DNA of 64,000 nucleotides from Myxococcales bacterium (GTDB taxonomy: Bacteria > Myxococcota_A > Polyangia > Polyangiales > DASUME01), in contig JASGJH010000001.1 in assembly GCA_047601445.1 (NCBI GenBank), positions 4,480,001 through 4,544,000 of the forward strand. The letters are read 5' to 3'. Position 1 is the first letter of the stretch. Every line of letters starts with the position of its first letter. The notes beneath the pieces were generated by a model. That model saw nothing but the letters and a program-made list of their open reading frames with translations. It was not told where the DNA came from and did no database searches. Both the position numbers and the translations under genes were made by a program. Positions 9,461 to 20,461 of the stretch are shown here, piece after piece.

Positions 9461-12400
9461 ATGAAGAAATCACCTGAGGTGGAGACACCGGAAGCCTGGG
9501 ACCTGAGTCGCGTTCGGCTCACGGTACAGGCCGTATCCGACGGCGCCGACGTTGGCGCGGCAACTCGCCTGTCGTCGAGACACGTTGGCTACCACCTTCA
9601 AGCGGGCAGAATTCTCGGATGGCTAGCTGGCGACAACAAGCACCCGACAGTCACCGATGCGGGACGAGCGCTCCTTGCAGCGCCACGAGACTCCGCTCAG
9701 GAAGCCGAGGCGCTTCGCTCCGCCGTTTCCGAATGCGCTGCCGTCAAGGTCGTCGTGGGGGAGCGCTTCAGTGGGATAACGTTCGAGGAGCTGGTCGCGG
9801 CTCTCGAAAGTAGCCCGCTAACCGGACTTGCGCGATCAACGGCCAAGAAGCGGGCCGCGGCGTTGCTGCGATGGCGTGACCGAACTCAGAGCGCTACGCC
9901 CGAGCTACCGTCCCAGGCAGAGAGCGCGCGGTGTGAACGCATACTTGTTCTTCAGTTCAGCGACATCCACACCAAAGACCACGCCGATCGCCAAAGGCTC
10001 GAGCACCGGCTATCCAGAGCGATATCGGCAGTAGCTGCACGGCCCGAAATCTATGGAATACGAGAATGCCTCGTGATCATATCCGGCGACATCTCGTACT
10101 CGGGGACGACAAGCCAGTTCGAACTCGCAAGCAGCGCACTGGAAAGCGCGCTTGGCAAGCTCAAGAGCCGCCTTTCTCTAAACGATGTCCAGGTCGTAGT
10201 CACCCCAGGCAACCACGACTGCGACTTTACCGTCGAGTCAAAGGCACGCGGAAAGCTGATCTCGTCAGTAGATCCGGCCGATGTAGACGTTTCATACGTT
10301 GAGGCATGCACAAGTACCCAAACAAGTTTCTGGAAGTTCGCATCGTTTTGGCACACCGGGCCGACGAGAAGCGTCGAAAAGAAAGTGGCAATGGAGATCC
10401 ACAGGATCTCCATTGCTGGGCGGACGATTCATGTCAACTCGTTGAACACTGCCTGGATGTCGACCATAGATGAGAAGCAGGGTGCACTCGTCTTTCCGAG
10501 TTCTGGAATCACAGCATTGCGAGCGCCATCGCCTGCTCCTGACGTCGTGATTACGGTTGGCCACCATGGCTACAACTGGTTTGAAGCCAACAACGCACGT
10601 GCCCTACGGACATCTGTCGAGACCTGCTCCGACATCCTCTTCAGTGGGCACGAGCATATGGCAGACAGCACGCTGAAGCTCGGATCCGCCGGCGACACCT
10701 CTTGGCATATCGAAGGCGGAGTCTTGAACGACAGCACCACCGCTGAGAACAGCTCGTTTAATGCGGTGATTCTGGACATAGCGGGAGGAGAACTTCGGGC
10801 TCTGTCGTTCCGGTGGAACGATGCAGACGACATGTATGTCATCGACCGTGAATCGTCACCCGTTGCATTCCAGCGCAACCAGTTGCGAATGAGGAGCGAA
10901 TTCCAGCTCAACCAAGCCTTCCAAGCGGCGTTGAACGACCCCGGAGAATCGTATCAGCATCCGAGAAAGTCTCCGATTCGGCTCCAGGATCTCTTTGTCT
11001 ACCCAAACCTGGAGGAGCGCGTTCACGAGAAGCACGCAGATGTCGCGCGACTAATCAGGACGCCTATCGATTTCATACTGCGAGAGCAATGCGTCCTGGT
11101 TCTTGCGCCTGAACGCGCAGGCAAGACGGCAATGGCACGCATGCTTTTCTCCGATCTATACAGGCTTGGATTCGTGCCGGTACTGATTGACGGGCGCCAA
11201 CTCGACAACCCGGCACCCGAGCGCGTCAACGCCAGAGCCGACGAATCGTTCGTTGAAGGCTACGACAGGGCGCTTCTTGAACGCTTTCGACAGCTCGACC
11301 CTGCCAAGCGGGTCTGCATCGTGGACGATCTTCACCGTTCTCCCCTCAACATCGCGGCCAAGGACAAGGCAATCGGAGTATTGGCAAGTTTTGCGGATAT
11401 GGTCGTAGTGTTCACCGATGAAAACTTCGACGTCGCAGCGGTCAGCGGCCCTACTCAAAGCTCCCATCTCTGGGATTTCTCGCATTGCACGATGCTCCCT
11501 TTGGGACACCGGGTGAGGTACGACTTAGTGTCGCGATGGTGCAATCTCGGGCGGGGCCATGGCGACGACCCCGATGCAGTTTCCCGAGAAACCGAGCGTC
11601 GCGACAGGACCGTAACACGTCTAATTGGCCAGAACTTTTTGCCTGCATATCCAGTCTTTGTCCTGCTCTGTTTACAGCAGCTGGAGATCAAGGCTCCTGA
11701 GAGCAACCTCGGATCATTTGGCCATCTCTACGAGGCGCTACTCACGCGCAACCTGATAAGCGGAGGCTCATCCTCGGGAATGGACCTGGATGCAAAGCAG
11801 CAGTTTCTTTCCCATTTCGCTTTCCACCTATTTGAGAGCGGCTCCGAAAGCACTGACAGGACTGCTTTCAATTCGTGTTACGACGAGTACTGCGAGCGAT
11901 TCCACGTTCGCTTTTCACTCGAACAACTTGAGAAGGAGCTGCTTGCCAGCCTAGTATTCGAGGTAAAATCCGGGCGGTATTGCTTCAAGTATCAGTACGC
12001 ATACCTATTTTTTGTTGCCAGGTATCTGCGAGATCGTTTGGACGAGACGAGGATTCGGGGCATCGTCGTTGAACTTTGCCGCAAGCTTCATCACGAGCAC
12101 TCAGCTAACATCCTCCTCTTCCTCTGTCATCTTTCTAAGCACCCATTCGTGCTGGACACTCTCCTGGAGGCGGCGCGGTCCTTGTTCTCCGACGGCATGC
12201 CCCTGGACATGGAAACGGCTCTTTCTCCGATTCACCAGAGGGCGGAGCCACGCACACTACGCCTGGAAGGCGGCGATCATCGCGAGAATCGACGCGCACT
12301 GCGCGATATCCGAGATCAAGGCGAACGCTCACGCGGCGACCGAATCGATCACGACGGATTGCCACCAGAGGTTATGACGTTCACCGCAGCCTACAAGACT

Positions 12401-12994
12401 GTTCACATTTTGGGCCAAGTACTCCGTGGGTTCCCTGGCTCGATTCCTGGAGACAAGAAGCTGGAGATTGCCTCCGAGTGCTACTCTCTCGGGCTGCGCT
12501 CGACACGCGCGCTGATGGAAATGATCATCGCTTCTCGCGAGGAAATCGAGGCCGGCTTGTGCGAGGTAATCGGGAGTCGACGGCCTGGACTTCGTGACGA
12601 TAGCGACAAGCTGCAAAACGCTGCGCGACGCATGCTTTTTGACCTTTGCGAGTCGATGTGTTTCGGGACCATTCAGCACATTTCAGACGCTGTTGGCCTG
12701 CAGACACTCTCACGGACCTACGACGAGGTCTTAAAGAAGCACAGCCCGATTTCATATCGCATCGTCGACCTATCCGTTCACCTAGACCATTTTGACGAGT
12801 TTCCGCAAACCCAACTTGATGGGCTACTACGTGACGCCAAGGGAAAGGTTCTTCCCATGAACCTGATCGGAAGACTGGTCTGGCGCCACATGTACCTCTT
12901 TCCTGTTAATCCAAGACTGATTCAGTCTCTGTGCAGCAAGCTGAACATTCAGTTCACCCTCGCCCTCAAGTCTTCGGGCAAGGGCCGAAGCTAG
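9461..12994 (+). CDS. Multidomain protein: N-terminal winged-helix-like domain, calcineurin-like metallophosphoesterase, STAND/NACHT-like P-loop NTPase, helical C-terminus (probable defence protein)
   Basis: Phosphoesterase motifs FSDIH, ISGDIS, PGNHD, GHH, SGHEH. Walker A APERAGKT (nt 11105-11128), Walker B CIVDDLH, then P-V-F-V and Y.F.Y STAND-like elements. Confidence 0.85.
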   Translation: MKKSPEVETPEAWDLSRVRLTVQAVSDGADVGAATRLSSRHVGYHLQAGRILGWLAGDNKHPTVTDAGRALLAAPRDSAQEAEALRSAVSECAAVKVVVGERFSGITFEELVAALESSPLTGLARSTAKKRAAALLRWRDRTQSATPELPSQAESARCERILVLQFSDIHTKDHADRQRLEHRLSRAISAVAARPEIYGIRECLVIISGDISYSGTTSQFELASSALESALGKLKSRLSLNDVQVVVTPGNHDCDFTVESKARGKLISSVDPADVDVSYVEACTSTQTSFWKFASFWHTGPTRSVEKKVAMEIHRISIAGRTIHVNSLNTAWMSTIDEKQGALVFPSSGITALRAPSPAPDVVITVGHHGYNWFEANNARALRTSVETCSDILFSGHEHMADSTLKLGSAGDTSWHIEGGVLNDSTTAENSSFNAVILDIAGGELRALSFRWNDADDMYVIDRESSPVAFQRNQLRMRSEFQLNQAFQAALNDPGESYQHPRKSPIRLQDLFVYPNLEERVHEKHADVARLIRTPIDFILREQCVLVLAPERAGKTAMARMLFSDLYRLGFVPVLIDGRQLDNPAPERVNARADESFVEGYDRALLERFRQLDPAKRVCIVDDLHRSPLNIAAKDKAIGVLASFADMVVVFTDENFDVAAVSGPTQSSHLWDFSHCTMLPLGHRVRYDLVSRWCNLGRGHGDDPDAVSRETERRDRTVTRLIGQNFLPAYPVFVLLCLQQLEIKAPESNLGSFGHLYEALLTRNLISGGSSSGMDLDAKQQFLSHFAFHLFESGSESTDRTAFNSCYDEYCERFHVRFSLEQLEKELLASLVFEVKSGRYCFKYQYAYLFFVARYLRDRLDETRIRGIVVELCRKLHHEHSANILLFLCHLSKHPFVLDTLLEAARSLFSDGMPLDMETALSPIHQRAEPRTLRLEGGDHRENRRALRDIRDQGERSRGDRIDHDGLPPEVMTFTAAYKTVHILGQVLRGFPGSIPGDKKLEIASECYSLGLRSTRALMEMIIASREEIEAGLCEVIGSRRPGLRDDSDKLQNAARRMLFDLCESMCFGTIQHISDAVGLQTLSRTYDEVLKKHSPISYRIVDLSVHLDHFDEFPQTQLDGLLRDAKGKVLPMNLIGRLVWRHMYLFPVNPRLIQSLCSKLNIQFTLALKSSGKGRS

Positions 12995-13289
12995 GCGCAC
13001 GGGCCGCTCGTGAGCACTTGCGTCGCTGAAGCCTGTACCTTCCTCTGTATGGAGCCCAGGGGCAAAGCACCAACTTAGAGCCGGCAGAGGGCGCCGAGTC
13101 GCATAGAGGCCGGAGCCTTTGAGTTCGAGCACGTTGGATCCAGCGTCGCAGGCAAGCCTGTTCGGAAGCCCTCCAAGATGCCTAAATCGTCAGTTTGGTT
13201 TTCACCCCTATGGTGCAATGACGGAGTTGGTTGAGGAGTGACTCAAAGTCCTAGGAGGATTGAGTGACCTAGGATAGGGTACGTACAGG

Positions 13290-13465
13290 GGCTCACAGGA
13301 GCTCTACACATCCGGCTACATCCTTTGCGGGCCCAATGCGCATTTGGGGTCGTGAGGGTCGCATCGGCGCGGGTCACCGCTCTGACGCATGAAATATACT
13401 TTTTCGCTCGGATGCGGCTTGGTGCGGGAGCTTGCGAGCAAACGCACCATTTTTAATTTGGTGTT
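13290..13465 (+). ncRNA. Putative DRT9-type RT-associated non-coding RNA (boundaries approximate)
   Basis: ORF-free region abutting the RT start. Stems: CATCCG(13309-14)/CGGATG(13409-14), CCCAA/TTGGG (about 13332-48), extended hairpin 13361-13388 (GCGG-GTCA-CCGC core), TGGTGCG(13420-26)/CGCACCA(13443-49). T5 tracts at 13400-04 and 13450-54. Confidence 0.7.
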
Positions 13466-13471
13466 GTTGCG

Positions 13472-15019
13472 ATGGCATCACGGACTGAGACCCATCTGCT
13501 GAACGCGATCCAGGATGAGGCGCGCAAGCTCATCCTTCGATATCAGCGTTATGCTCACGATCTGCACAACGAGGCCATGAGAATCGGGCGTCGAGCAGGA
13601 AGGGTTCCGCCGAAGGAAGTCAGGCGGCCGGGCTATTGGTCGTTGCCGGCGTTCGATCCATTTCATGTTCGAGCTCAGGCAGGGGGCTACGCGCATGCCC
13701 TCGCCCGTTCCCTTGAGCGAGACACCTACAAGCCGTGGCCCGCCGTTTCGTACGATGTCCCGAAGTCCGATGGCACGATGCGAGAGGTCAACGTGTTCTC
13801 GGTCGCCGACAATGCGTTCTCTCGTCTCGTTTACAAGGGACTGCTCGCAAAGAACTGCACGCGTTTCAGCGCTCGCTGCTATGCCTATAGGACCGACTTG
13901 ACCGTCCATGATGCGATTACACACATCGCGTCAGAGTTTCGTTCAACGCAGCGCCTCTTCATTGCGGAGTTCGATTTCAGCAAGTTTTTCGACTCGATTT
14001 CGCATGACCACATTCTTCGGGTACTAGACAGCGGTCAGTTCCTTCTGACGAATCGAGAGAGACGAATCATTGAGTCGTTTCTACGCACCCCGACTCTAGG
14101 AGTTGCCAGCTGGACGAACCGCTCGGTCCTAGTGCGCGAGCGTGGAATTCCCCAGGGAACTTCCCTCTCTCTGTTCTTGGCCAACGCAGCAGCAAGCCCC
14201 CTCGACAGGACGCTCGAACGCATGAGCGTGGGTTTCGCACGCTATGCCGACGACACAATTATTTGGTCCACCGACTACAGCGCAGTCCTGGGTGCCGTCG
14301 ACGCTTTGTCTGAGGCTGCTCGTCTGATGGGAGTTCAGATAAACCTGAAAAAGTCCGGCGGAATTAGCCTAGTTTGCCCACCAACCTACCGAAGCCCTGA
14401 GCTTGCTTCAAGCAAGGCGTCGGCTGTCTATCTCGGCTACGGGATCTCGCAATCATTCGTTTCGATTAGCCCGAACAATGTAGAGGGCATCAAGAAGCGG
14501 ATAGCCGAGATCGTGTTTCGCAACCTACTCGAGTTTCCATCGAATGGCATACTGAACGCCGCTCGCGTAGACCCTCCTATTGACCGGGACTACTACGTCA
14601 TGATTCTTCAGATCAGACGCTACCTATACGGTGACGTGAGTGAGCTTCAACTTCGTAGATTCTTCAATCGCACAAGCGCAAGGATTCGCTTTAGAGGGCT
14701 CATGTCTTTCTACCCGTTGGTCGACCACTTCGACCAGCTGAAGGCGCTTGATGGCTGGATGGTTCATACGATCGCGACGACGCTCAAACTGCGTGGCGAC
14801 TACTTTGTCAAAGCCGGAGTCCAACTGCCTCGTCCGCACGGCCTGAGTCGTGGTGAACTCCTTACCTTTCAGGGGCGAAGCACAAAGGACACCCCACTTG
14901 ACTTGCGCATTCCGAGCTTCGTACGGATGGCTCGCCTAATGCAGCGGGTTACGAAGTTGCGTGGAGCCAATGCAATCGCGAATCCCAAGTCATTTGAGTA
15001 CTACTGGGGCCTGACGTGA
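13472..15019 (+). CDS. Defence-associated reverse transcriptase, DRT9/UG28-like
   Basis: VPKSDG..R, YAYR, EFDFSKFFDSISH, GIPQGTSLSLFLAN, RYADD (YADD at 14243-54), KKS, LGY. The flanking motifs RPGYW..FDPF.V, IRRYLYG, GLMSFYPLV, LDGW, IPSF and NPKSFEYY match my recollection of DRT9 RTs. No maturase or endonuclease domain. Confidence 0.88.
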   Translation: MASRTETHLLNAIQDEARKLILRYQRYAHDLHNEAMRIGRRAGRVPPKEVRRPGYWSLPAFDPFHVRAQAGGYAHALARSLERDTYKPWPAVSYDVPKSDGTMREVNVFSVADNAFSRLVYKGLLAKNCTRFSARCYAYRTDLTVHDAITHIASEFRSTQRLFIAEFDFSKFFDSISHDHILRVLDSGQFLLTNRERRIIESFLRTPTLGVASWTNRSVLVRERGIPQGTSLSLFLANAAASPLDRTLERMSVGFARYADDTIIWSTDYSAVLGAVDALSEAARLMGVQINLKKSGGISLVCPPTYRSPELASSKASAVYLGYGISQSFVSISPNNVEGIKKRIAEIVFRNLLEFPSNGILNAARVDPPIDRDYYVMILQIRRYLYGDVSELQLRRFFNRTSARIRFRGLMSFYPLVDHFDQLKALDGWMVHTIATTLKLRGDYFVKAGVQLPRPHGLSRGELLTFQGRSTKDTPLDLRIPSFVRMARLMQRVTKLRGANAIANPKSFEYYWGLT

Positions 15020-15495
15020 TGGTAGCGCTGATTGAACCTTCGTAAGATGGGTTGGGTTTGAACTCGAGCGCGGGTTGTCACCGGCATTGGCCCAAAGGCC
15101 TCGCGCGGCGCACTAGGCGTCGAAGCTCTGCAGTTTTGCGCGTGGGCCTCTCGGGTCCGTGGGGCATGCGCCGTTGAACGTTGCGTCGGGGGCGAGGCTC
15201 AAGTCGCTCACGGTCGAGACGGCCCTGTGGCCATCTTGCCGTTTGCGGGCGGTCTCTAGGGTTGGATCGAGGACAGCCTTCTGTCTGAGCTGGCGGGCTC
15301 GGCGGTGCCGAACCGCATTCGCGGAGTCGGTATGGAGAGAAGCCGGTCACTGGGCACTAGCACATTGCGAGATGCTGCGAGGGCAAGCAGAGACGAGTGC
15401 CGAGATCGGGCGGGACTGGATTCAAAGTTGGAAGCAACGGTTTGACCGACATTGGCGTAGACATCGAGGTTTCTCGGCGAGATACACTCAGCTCC

Positions 15496-16248
15496 ATGCA
15501 TGAGTCAGATGCCGCAGACATCGAGTCCCAAGCCACTCAAGACATGCTAATGCGCCACTCGGTTCTGATGCTGTTCGCCAGCCGAACTACTGGAGAGTGG
15601 TCTCAGGGAACTGGCACGTTCTTCGAGACTGATCGGCATCACTATCTCGTCACCGCAGCTCACGTTGCCGAGGACTTAGGGGCAGATGATCTTCGGTTCG
15701 GGCTGATTCTGCAGCCCGGGGGGAGCAAGGCAATCTTCGAGCCGGAGAGGCCGGACCACTGGATTTTAGGGAATCAGGCGACGCGCGATGTTGCGGCGTT
15801 CCGACTTGCGCGTGGGGACGTGCAGGAGATCAAACGTGCCGGATTTCGATTCCTCAGGGTCTCCGACTTCGCCGACGGCGAGTTCGGGCGATTTGCGATC
15901 TACGGCTACCCAAAGGCCATGACAACAATTGACCATCATGGCCTGCACAAGGATTCGGTGTGGCTCGAAGTACCTGCGTATGAGGGCTCCGAACGGTGCG
16001 GGAAGAATGAGTTCCTACTGAAGTGGCACGACGGCATTGATTTTCATCTGGGCGGCGTAAGTGGTTCGCCGGTGTGGGCCGTCCTCGAACAGAGACCAGG
16101 CTCCATTTGGGGCGGACCAACGGCTCACTACAAATTCTGCGGTATCCAGATCAGCATAAAGAAGGGCGAATGGATCAAATTCGTGCAGGCGTTTGTGGTG
16201 GGAGAAATGCTCGATCTTGCAGATCGCATCCAGATCATTCGGAAGTAG
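15496..16248 (+). CDS. Trypsin-like (PA clan) serine protease, no signal peptide
   Basis: GTGTFF, YLVTAAHV (His), DVAAF (Asp), GYP, GGVSGSPV (Ser). Start uncertain (ORF open from 15397). Confidence 0.8.
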   Translation: MHESDAADIESQATQDMLMRHSVLMLFASRTTGEWSQGTGTFFETDRHHYLVTAAHVAEDLGADDLRFGLILQPGGSKAIFEPERPDHWILGNQATRDVAAFRLARGDVQEIKRAGFRFLRVSDFADGEFGRFAIYGYPKAMTTIDHHGLHKDSVWLEVPAYEGSERCGKNEFLLKWHDGIDFHLGGVSGSPVWAVLEQRPGSIWGGPTAHYKFCGIQISIKKGEWIKFVQAFVVGEMLDLADRIQIIRK

Positions 16249-16515: not shown

Positions 16516-16818
16516 CTACCTGCCCACCCAATACCCCGGCTTCCTCCGCTGATGCGCCACTGCCAGCACCTGCAACTCGTCGCCGACCACCCGCACGATC
16601 ACAAGATACGGGAACCGTCTCAATAGGTGCACGCGACGGGTCGGACTTCCCTTCCGCCATGCTCGTCCGCTGCGCGGAAACTGCCGCGCGCGCGCAAGCA
16701 CCACGCCTAGCTCGTCTACAAACGCGTCGCCGAGCTCGGCGCTCATCTCAGCGAAGTAGCGCTGAGCTTCCTGCACCTCGCGGGCGGCCGCAGGGTGGAA
16801 GAGAACCCTACGCGTCAC
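16516..16818 (-). CDS. Type II toxin, ParE/RelE family
   Basis: FHPAA..E...A..YF, RRFPY, VLAVAHQRRKPGYW; overlaps the antitoxin stop by 4 nt. Confidence 0.9.
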   Translation of the reverse strand: MTRRVLFHPAAAREVQEAQRYFAEMSAELGDAFVDELGVVLARARQFPRSGRAWRKGSPTRRVHLLRRFPYLVIVRVVGDELQVLAVAHQRRKPGYWVGR

Positions 16819-17042
16819 CGCCGTAGACTCTCGCGCAACCCATCCCAGTCGATTAGCTCGACTTCGCCCTTCTCAATCTCTTCCTCACGCCGATCGAGCT
16901 CCGCGCTCCAGGCGGCCTCAAAGTCCGCCACGTCTTCGCCGGGAGGGTCGAGTGTCTTGAGCAGCTGGGTGATGACCTTGGCGCGCTCGGAGCTGTCGAG
17001 CGCACTCGCTTGCTTCACGATGTCGGCAACCTTGGAGGCCAT
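16815..17042 (-). CDS. Putative addiction-module antitoxin
   Basis: 75 aa, acidic: ERAK...LL.TLD...AAWSAELDRR...I..G.V.LIDW; directly upstream of the toxin. Confidence 0.85.
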   Translation of the reverse strand: MASKVADIVKQASALDSSERAKVITQLLKTLDPPGEDVADFEAAWSAELDRREEEIEKGEVELIDWDGLRESLRR

Positions 17043-17143: not shown

Positions 17144-20100
17144 TCACGAGCACCCCATGCTCGCCCCGCAATTCAGGCACTTATAACAAGCCCCGTTCCG
17201 CACCGTAATGTGCCCGCACGTATCGCACATCGGCGCGTCCCCCATCATCTCACCCAAGTGCTGGTCGAGCACGCTGCTAGCACCCGCCCCATACTCCTTC
17301 GCACTCGCGCTCGAGCTCGAAGGCGGCGGCGGCAAGCTACTCGCTTCACCCGGTGAGTACTGATGCACCGCCCCCACGTCAGTCGGATCCTTCATGTCCG
17401 CCTGAACTTCATCCGGCGGCACATGCGCAAGGTCATACCGCTTGATGTACTCCACACCCAGCGTGCGGAAGATGTAGTCGATGATCGAGGTGGCGAACTT
17501 GATGTTCGGGTGCCCCTCAACCGGACCCTGCGGCTCGAAGCGCGTGAACGTGAACTGCTCGACATAGCTGCCGAGTGGCACGCCGTGCTGGAGACCCATG
17601 GACACGCTGATGGCGAAGCAGTTCATGAGTGAGCGGAAGGCTGCGCCTTCCTTGTGCATGTCGACGAAGATTTCGCCGAGCTCGCCGCTGTCGTACTCAC
17701 CGGTGCGCAGGAAGACCTTGTGGCCGGCCACGCGGGCTTCCTGGGTGAAGCCGTGGCGCTTCTTGGGCAAGCGGTGACGAACGGTGGGAGGGGGCGAGAG
17801 GCCTTCCTTGAGCTTGGCTGCCGGACGCGCTGCGACGGCGGGCACGGGGGCCGGGGCCGGGGCTTCGATCTTGGCGACGGCCTTGGTCTCGGACTTTTCC
17901 TTCTTGTCTTCGGTGCCGCTGTTGAGCGGTTGGCTGAGCTTGCAGCCATCGCGGTAGAGGGCGACTGCCTTGAGGCCGAGCTTCCAGCCCTGCATGTACA
18001 CGTCGGCTACGTCTTCTACCGTCGCGTCATTGGGCAGGTTGACGGTCTTGGAAATGGCGCCGCTCAAGAAGGGCTGAGCGGCGGCCATCATGCGCACGTG
18101 GGACATCGGAGCGAGGAATCGCTTGCCCTTCTTGCCGCAGCGGTTCGCGCAGTCGAACACGGGCAGGTCTTCGTCTCGAAGGTGGGGGGCACCTTCGATC
18201 GTCTGACGACCGAGCACCGTGTCGTTCAGCTCTTCGATCTGTTCGGGGGAAAGACCGAAGTGCTTGAGGAGGTTGAAACCAGGCTTGGCAGCCAACTCGG
18301 CGGGAACTCCGAGTCGGTCATAGGCTTCCTTACCGATGACCCAGAGCGCGAGGGCCTGACCCACGTCGAACACGCCCACGAGAGCCTTCTCGGCCTTGGC
18401 GATTTCGGCGTCGGAGAGTCCCTTTTCCGCGAGGATCTTGCGGCTGAGGTGTGGCGCACCCGTGAAGGTGTTGGTGCCGCTGATGAAGGCCACGATGTCC
18501 GCGGTCTGCGCGTCGGAGTAACCGAGGCGCTTGAGGGCGTCGGGCACGGAGTTGTTGACGATCTTGAAGTAACCGCCGCCGGCGAGCTTCTTGAACTTCA
18601 CGAGCGCGAAGTCGGGCTCGATGCCGGTGGTGTCGCAATCCATCAAGAGACCGATGGTGCCGGTGGGCGCGAGCACGGTGGCCTGCGCGTTGCGGTAACC
18701 GCTCTTCTCCCCCGCGCGCACGGCGAGGTCCCAGTCGTAGGCGCCCGCGGCGAGCACGGAGCTGATGACGTCGTCGGCGGCGCCGCCCTGGGCCTGGAAG
18801 TCGTTCTGCCAGGTGTGGGCTGCATTCTGGTGCTTGCGCATCACGCGCAGCATGGGGTCACGGTTCGGGGCGTAACCCGCGAACGGTCCCTTGCTCTCGG
18901 CCATCTGGGCGCTCACGGCGTAGGCGTGGCCGCACAGGATGGCGGTGAGTCCGGCGCACAGCGCGCGGCCCTCTTCGCTGTCGTAGGGGATGCCGAGGCG
19001 CATCAGCAGCGTGCCGAGGTTGGCGTAGCCGAGACCGAGCGGACGGTACTCGTGGCTGTTCTGGGCGATCTTCTCGGTGGGGTAGCTCGAGTAATCGACC
19101 AGGATTTCCTGGGCGATGAAGAGCACGCGGATGGCCTGGCGGTAGCCCTCGATGTCGAACTTGCCGTCGTCGGACAAGAACTTGGTGAGGTTGATGGACG
19201 ACAGGTTGCAGGCCGTGTCGTCGAGGAACATGTACTCGCTGCAGGGGTTGGACGCGTTGATGCGATCGGTGCCCGCGGCGGTGTGCCAGTCGTTGATGGT
19301 GGTGTCGTACTGCACGCCCGGATCGGCGCAGGCCCAGGCGGCCTCGGCGAGCTTCTTCCACAGGTCGCGCGCCTTGAGGGTGCTGGCGACCTTGCCGGTG
19401 GTGCGCTCGTAGGTGCGCCACTCGCCGTCCTGCTCCACGGCCTTCATGAAGGCGTCCGTGACGCGCACGGAGTTGTTGGAGTTCTGGCCGGCGACGGTGT
19501 GATAGGCCTCGCCGTTGAAGTCACTGGAGTAGCCAGCCTTGATGAGGGCCGCCACCTTGCGCTCCTCGCGCACCTTCCAGGTGATGAAGTCCTCGATCTC
19601 CGGGTGGTCCATGTCGAGGCACACCATCTTGGCGGCGCGACGCGTGGTGCCGCCCGACTTGGTGGCGCCCGCAGCGCGGTCGAACACCTCGAGGAAGCTC
19701 ATGAGGCCGGAGCTGGTGCCGCCGCCCGAGAGCTTCTCGGTGATGCCGCGGATCTTGGAGAAGTTGGAGCCGGTGCCGGAGCCGTACTTGAAGAGGCGGG
19801 CTTCGTTCTTGATGAGGTCGTAGATGCCCATCAGGTCGTCCGAGACGCTCTGGATGAAGCAGGCGGAGCACTGGGGCTGCTCGTAGGCGTTCTTGGTCTC
19901 GGCGACCTTGCCGACGACGGGATCGAAGGCGTAGCTGCCGCCCGAGCCTTCGATGCCATAGCGCTGGAAGAGGCCGCAGTTGAACCACACGGGCGAGTTG
20001 AAGGCGCCCTTCTGGTTGATGAGGATGGAGGAGAGCTCGGCCTCGAAGGTGTCGGCGTCTTCGGTGGAGGCGAAGTAGCCGCCGAACTTCTCACCGGCCT

Positions 20101-20461
20101 CGCGGATGGTGTGCGAGACGCGGTAGACGAGGTCGCGGGCGGAGGTCTCGCCGCGCTTGGCGTCGCCGTTGATGCCGGCCTTGCGGAAGTACTTGGAGAC
20201 GGCGATATCGGTGGCGAGCTGGGACCAGCTGGCGGGGATCTCCGCGTTCTTCAGCTGGAAGACGACGGTGCCGTCCGGGTCGGTGATGACGCTGTCGCGG
20301 TTCTCGTACTTGACCTCATTGAGGGGGTCGACGCCCGGACGCGTGAACATGCGAGCGAGCACCAGGCCCTTGCCGAGGCCCGAGTCACGAGCTGCCTTGG
20401 CGCCGCGACCGTTCGTCTTCTCCGTGTTTTTCTCCACTTCGACCTCCCCTTCCTCTTCCAC
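17144..20461 (-). CDS. nrdJ: Vitamin B12-dependent (class II) ribonucleotide reductase with TSCPD domain and C-terminal Zn ribbon
   Basis: [52 protein letters not shown]-terminal CDTCG...CYKCLNCG. Confidence 0.95.

Follow-up and report, generated by a model that had tools for sequence, protein, structure and literature searches.

A DRT9 reverse transcriptase and its predicted upstream RNA in a Myxococcales genome

An open reading frame at 13472-15019 of the 64,000-nt stretch of DNA analysed here (the window) had been attributed, in an earlier note made from the sequence alone, to a divergent DRT9 (UG28) reverse transcriptase (RT) whose product or trigger may differ from those of known members. 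The locus thus raises the question of whether it encodes such an enzyme together with its RNA and, if so, which product is to be expected. We find that the product of this frame is a DRT9 reverse transcriptase and that the locus very probably constitutes a two-part DRT9 abortive-infection system composed of the RT and an RNA. Poly-dA synthesis, oligomerization and phage defence by this system are predicted by analogy with its characterized relative SenDRT9. The features of the locus are collected in Table 1.

Table 1. Features of the DRT9 locus and its neighbours (window positions)
Feature	Position	Strand	Basis
DS-8 anti-phage protein (metallophosphatase and STAND/NACHT NTPase), neighbour	9461..12994	+	NF053861 847.6 bits, cut-off 790
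DRT9 non-coding RNA, predicted, about 167 nt	13288..13454	+	ends inferred from fold and homology
5' hairpin (SL1 equivalent), 7 bp	13288..13305	+	fold
Long-range helix, 13309-13314 pairing with 13409-13414	13309..13414	+	fold, duplex test
Hairpins inside the long-range helix, plus template loop	13322-13358 and 13361-13388 (GUCA loop)	+	fold
Family motif preceding U5	13391-13399	+	sequence model, relatives
U5 tract, predicted poly-dA template	13400..13404	+	homology to Sen U123-U126
Terminator-like 3' hairpin, then second U5 run	13420..13454	+	fold, z -2.5
DRT9 (UG28) reverse transcriptase gene	13472..15019	+	PADLOC, PDB 9ioa match, model, residue map
15-codon segment without SenDRT9 counterpart	14090..14134	+	about residues 207-221; alignment, tree, spacing
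Trypsin-like protease frame, low GC, neighbour	15397..16248	+	Pfam Trypsin_2 22.9 bits, below cut-off

The family assignment of the 515-residue protein, whose frame has no internal stop, is upheld by both profile and structure. In the profile search that the earlier note had proposed as a check, the PADLOC Drt9 model matches it with 558.7 bits over about 487 of 488 model positions (2-487), the runner-up model reaching 104 bits and no other UG model more than 83.3; for comparison, the Drt9 model gives SenDRT9 735 bits and the Plesiocystis protein 587. The top solved relative is 9ioa (E 2.3e-102), followed by five further DRT9 entries and then a match at E 9e-18; the alignment to 9ioa spans the full length, including the N- and C-terminal extensions. 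With SenDRT9, 196 of 493 aligned positions (40%) are identical; the Sen reference was E. coli locus L079, whose protein accession is that of the SenDRT9 entry of Tang et al. (WP_211092143.1) and whose RNA is possibly not quite identical to that of Salmonella SenDRT9. An AlphaFold2 model computed on an alignment of 64 rows (pLDDT 93.2), in which the N-terminal helix extension occupies residues 4-42, retrieved DRT9 chains as its six best Foldseek matches (TM 0.82-0.88, E 5e-46; the highest TM, 0.88, for 9vma), compared with TM 0.43 and E 1.6e-12 for DRT2. A FastTree phylogeny of 110 proteins, free of other UG clades and made up of the window RT, three outgroups and 106 near-complete, de-duplicated proteins taken from 138 loci, also places the protein within the DRT9 loci.

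The intact RT core and all nine motifs named in the earlier note were located in the frame, at residues 225 (GIPQGTSLSLFLAN), 258 (YADD), 52 (RP.YW..FDPF.V), 381 (IRRY.YG), 409 (G.MSFYPLV), 426 (LDGW), 480 (IPSF), 504 (NP.S..Y) and 206 (an extra segment), and seven of the nine, including YADD, are common to SenDRT9. The reported lack of maturase, HNH, Cas1 and retron VTG motifs was likewise borne out, with RVT_1 as the only Pfam match and VTG absent from the protein. On this basis a group II intron RT (TIGR04416 117 against a cut-off of 300), a retron RT (retron St85 53 against 235) and a CRISPR-associated RT were rejected. A SLATT-associated DRT9 or DRT10 was rejected as well, there being no adjacent SLATT gene and no match to SLATT_5 (PF18160) anywhere in the host genome by a search that was positive in another genome (G421).

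The extra segment before GIPQG, presented in the earlier note as carried by this copy, is real in comparison with Sen and is not peculiar to the window RT. Aligned to 9ioa it corresponds to a 15-residue gap in Sen, occupying the site of the Sen R205-K208 loop, and the D168-G225 spacing is 57 residues in the window, 42 in Sen and about 42 in Sen-like proteins. The spacing is 56-59 residues in all 119 homologues considered (the best 119 of 1095 matches among 8000 scored candidates), and the segment was rejected as a unique feature. Proteins with and without it are called long-form and short-form below. The short-form DRT9s make up one clade of the tree (support 0.961) nested within long-form lineages, among which the window protein is sister to that of Plesiocystis pacifica (L001; support 0.845). 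Extra residues at the same site are also carried by GsI-IIC and by the outgroup RTs, which include two proteins from a genome of the same genus (G001) that are not DRT9 and look group II intron-like; eight further outgroup candidates were excluded for want of a usable reading frame. From this topology and these outgroup residues the segment is probably ancestral and was lost in the Salmonella-like branch, a tentative polarity with the root placed on three long branches. In Sen, R205 and K208 bind U67 in the RNA of the partner subunit (Han et al., PMC12489045). Since the segment sits at this very loop, that contact is probably made in another way by the long form, if the analogy with Sen holds.

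Residues of established importance are retained elsewhere in the protein. Sen Y25, K98, R104, R140 and YADD 243-246 correspond to Y27, K98, R104, R140 and Y258-A-D-D261 of the window RT, and hardly vary among 51 long-form and 42 short-form rows. The window RT does not conserve Sen K208 and R420, two positions that vary across the family. At the C-terminus, Sen Y496 corresponds to Y510 and Sen Y498 to W512, with Y511 between them, and by analogy Y510 and Y511 are predicted to prime synthesis. A count over the final 14 residues, some rows being incomplete, gives a YY tail in 90 of the same best 119 homologues (YxY in 4, one Y in 22, none in 3) and in 20 of 42 Sen-like loci. It is shared with L001 and most Acidobacteriota rows. 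The replacement of Y498 by W512 calls for caution as to activity, since the Y498F change alone is reported to have abolished T5 defence by SenDRT9.

A U-tract RNA upstream, implied by the DRT9 assignment, was found directly before the RT gene. The hand-chosen span 13288-13420 has a folding energy of -58.3 kcal/mol (z -4.5, beating 200 of 200 shuffles; 17 extra bases bring z to -2.1), and the minimum free energy fold weakly pairs part of the U5 tract. Its layout matches the description of the Sen RNA and, by eye, that of relatives, in nearly all of which an SL1-like element, hand-placed in some, begins about 83-123 nt before the U-tract. A model built from 52 long-form RNAs, with the window excluded, placed 13355-13411 at the top of five matches in the 64 kb (E 2.7e-5, next 0.046); RNAalifold gave no consensus pairs in this 52-row alignment, so that the model scores sequence only, and its training RNAs were anchored on T-runs, so that conservation of the U-tract is partly built in. 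A covariance model from 36 Sen-like RNAs, which recovered 9 of 14 held-out loci, did not match the window RNA, and an Rfam scan returned nothing meaningful and no family for it. In a duplex test of the long helix at 40 loci, own-locus partners averaged -21.7 against -13.5 kcal/mol for cross-locus ones; the own partner ranked among the top three at 21 of the 40 loci and sixth of 40 in the window. The test supports locus-specific pairing on average, and only moderately for the window RNA. The RNA of the nearest relative, L001, folds no better than chance (z -0.2), and by eye it matches the window RNA at 19 of the 20 nt surrounding the template.

The U5 tract lies in the template slot, and poly-dA is accordingly the predicted product. 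We considered whether the enzyme is instead a DRT9 member making mixed or short-repeat DNA, the fingers segment or the RNA shifting the template register. This would fit the 15-residue segment and YY tail, unlike those of every solved DRT9, an RNA too divergent for the Sen-like model, and the fact that the literature consulted reports no product for long-form enzymes. It is nevertheless very unlikely: the motif that precedes U5 is the one found in Sen; the slot holds at least 4 U in 59 of 63 long-form loci and 3 U in the other 4 (hand-picked, T-run-anchored loci, with truncated, duplicate or doubtful ones such as L053, L093, L117, L127, L131 and L148 omitted); and the segment would by homology lie at the subunit interface, outside the template channel described for Sen. 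An altered template was rejected for this locus on the same ground of U5 behind the family motif, and with catalytic and lock residues kept and a segment that is usual in a large branch, the suggestion of a divergent enzyme whose product may differ finds no support.

By extension from SenDRT9, the poly-dA system would work as follows. The RNA and RT would form an RNA-scaffolded oligomer, the C-terminal tyrosine Y510, perhaps Y511, would prime synthesis, and the RT would slip on the U-tract and copy it over and over, giving long protein-linked stretches of poly-dA that would accumulate on phage infection and stop the cell. How poly-dA harms the cell is called elusive by Tang et al. (PMC12483538), and its sequestration of phage SSB is cited in another paper.

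The window system resembles SenDRT9/EcoDRT9 (UG28; WP_211092143.1; PDB 9NLV, 9NLX, 9IOA, 9VKU, 9VMA; PMC12483538, PMC12489045) in its RNA-then-RT order, N-terminal helix extension, YADD, lock residues, equivalents of Y25 and C-terminal Y496, a U-tract template within a long-range helix, and a 3' hairpin with a U run, the 3' U-rich region being described as dispensable in the SenDRT9 RNA. It differs in the 15 additional residues at the R205-K208 loop, in a YYWGLT tail in place of YDYE, in having two internal hairpins in the RNA where Sen has three, and in a host without detected ExoI. The long segment is common to the window RT, L001, Acidobacteriota MAGs, Myxococcus AB056 and AS-1-15, HalDRT9 and MpoDRT9 (supplement rows compared by eye), and among the matches listed the window RT is at most 54% identical to long-form homologues. 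DRT10 (UG17) and DRT2 (UG2) share with the window system class 2 RNA-templated repetitive synthesis, and DRT10 is also reported to be protein-primed and SbcB-controlled; unlike the case for these systems, the window RT scores only 83 and 49 bits with their respective PADLOC models and has a homopolymer template, not A-B-A', and its host, unlike DRT10, has no SLATT_5 gene found. The literature consulted also comprises 10.1101/2025.03.24.645077, 10.1101/2025.10.16.682844, 10.64898/2026.04.29.721553 and 10.64898/2026.06.29.735271.

DRT9 in myxobacteria is already catalogued, as Supplementary Table 1 of PMC12483538 holds two Myxococcus rows, long-form by eye, one of which Mestre et al. place in UG28. 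Its Table 2 has long-form homologues among the systems tested, and the only ones that Tang et al. name as defending in E. coli are the short-form Sen and Psa systems; Hal, Mpo, Rpe and Kae, all with the long segment by eye, are among those tested and not named active. No work on a long-form DRT9, or on one from myxobacteria, turned up in our literature search. DRT9 being well characterized and already listed from myxobacteria, the single locus in itself matters little.

The myxobacterium-like character ascribed to the window is supported by MYXO-CTERM, myxo_disulf_rpt and AgmX/PglI tail proteins over NCBIfam cut-offs, and by a host genome of 9.5 Mb and 66% GC. GC content falls to about 55% over 10-15 kb of the window, and while five flanking genes have GC3 values of 0.76-0.89, the value is 0.64 for the genes of DS-8, the RT and the protease. 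Drt9 was found in none of 400 other genomes of an 'order' sample and none of 400 of a 'phylum' sample, two overlapping sets with many small genomes. The RT-RNA module would have arrived by horizontal transfer, within a small defence island. No convincing flanking repeat was seen at the island ends, and in an empty-site comparison the flanking peptidase had only 31-35% matches, in 3 of 9 genus relatives.

Within the island, the DS-8 gene ends 293 nt before the RNA, on the same strand. This proximity, the equal low GC3 and the absence of ExoI and SLATT_5 matches from the genome would suit a single system in which the DS-8 phosphoesterase is the missing silencer or the effector. Such a partnership is extremely unlikely, given that DS-8 has no match in 138 DRT9 loci, 68 of which include over 3 kb of upstream sequence, and is reported to defend as a single protein (PMC13092281). 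The protease and an M48 peptidase were rejected as partners on the same count (no match in 138 loci), and ParE gave one weak match among the 138. Three further observations concern these neighbours. At its N-terminus the DS-8 protein is extended by about 160 residues (9461-9910) that resemble DUF7226, an atlas match (score 0.92) to be taken as no more than a lead; a ParE-type toxin and a TIGR02574 antitoxin (16516-17042) lie at the right edge of the island; and adjoining them is the host class II ribonucleotide reductase gene nrdJ (17144-20461), an adjacency probably due to chance, though phage nrdA is implicated in DRT9 activation.

A recently acquired island could also carry an intact-looking RT gene as a silent or non-functional passenger. 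No sigma-70 match was found in 12900-15400, no clear Shine-Dalgarno sequence is visible by eye before the RT ATG, and no ExoI is available for detoxification. Set against this, the frame and the tested residues are intact, the RNA retains all its helices, a TAGGGT hexamer stands 7 nt before SL1, by eye at the spacing of -10-like hexamers in some relatives, and ExoI is also absent in 15 of 20 other DRT9 hosts; we regard a passenger as unlikely and a working DRT9 system as the preferred reading. Just upstream of the RNA (13236-13274), GAGTGAC and CCTAGGA each occur twice, making up an 8-bp inverted repeat (fold z -1.5), possibly an operator.

The control of such a system would have to differ from that in E. 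coli, where ExoI is reported to remove the DRT9 product and T5 gp58 or a phage ribonucleotide reductase to tip the balance. ExoI/SbcB (PF08411) had no match in the host genome, which is 98.7% complete, by a search positive in E. coli; ExoVII, a single-strand exonuclease, and two DnaQ-fold nucleases are present. We infer that the off-switch in this host is not ExoI; the likeliest candidates to take its place are a different single-strand exonuclease, ExoVII for instance, and a low resting dATP level. The earlier suggestion that the trigger may differ is therefore plausible, on the different ground of the ExoI result. Among 20 other DRT9 hosts of our own choosing ExoI was present in five, all of them Gammaproteobacteria, and missing in 15, which makes the missing silencer a family-wide question, not one peculiar to this locus. 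The published control model needs host ExoI, and the long-form systems offer a natural test of how poly-dA stays harmless elsewhere. A broader reading, conceivable and still somewhat doubtful, is that the window system belongs to an ancestral long-form YY branch with a poly-dA product, an altered back-to-back interface (the segment filling the loop that binds a partner RNA base in Sen), ExoI-independent silencing, and a novel silencer and trigger.

Several other DRT9 loci depart from the usual arrangement. Three basal DRT9-like loci seem to be without the U4 template: the family-like motif is followed by CTTG in Sinorhizobium americanum (L053:5900-5925; Drt9 500 bits) and by CGGA in L172:1440-1465 (G586), and a Thioclava plasmid (L170:1385-1497) has a CTTAC..CTTAC repeat with no clear U4 slot. 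A SLATT gene lies directly downstream in L053 and L170, and a search for viral relatives of L053 gave none. These three loci, aligned by eye, could represent a DRT9 branch making a product other than poly-dA, a deviation that may be of more interest than the window locus itself. In Terrisporobacter (L045:5850-5985) an intact DRT9 RT (698 bits) is preceded only by an RNA 3' end and terminator; with no U-tract and no RNA-model match, this RNA may be truncated. The RNA of a Deferribacterales MAG (L014:5657-5990) is separated from the RT start by about 170 nt more than in the usual arrangement. Finally, two IMG/VR contigs classed as viral (L163 and L164) carry short-form DRT9 systems, that of L164 being sister to SenDRT9 in the tree.
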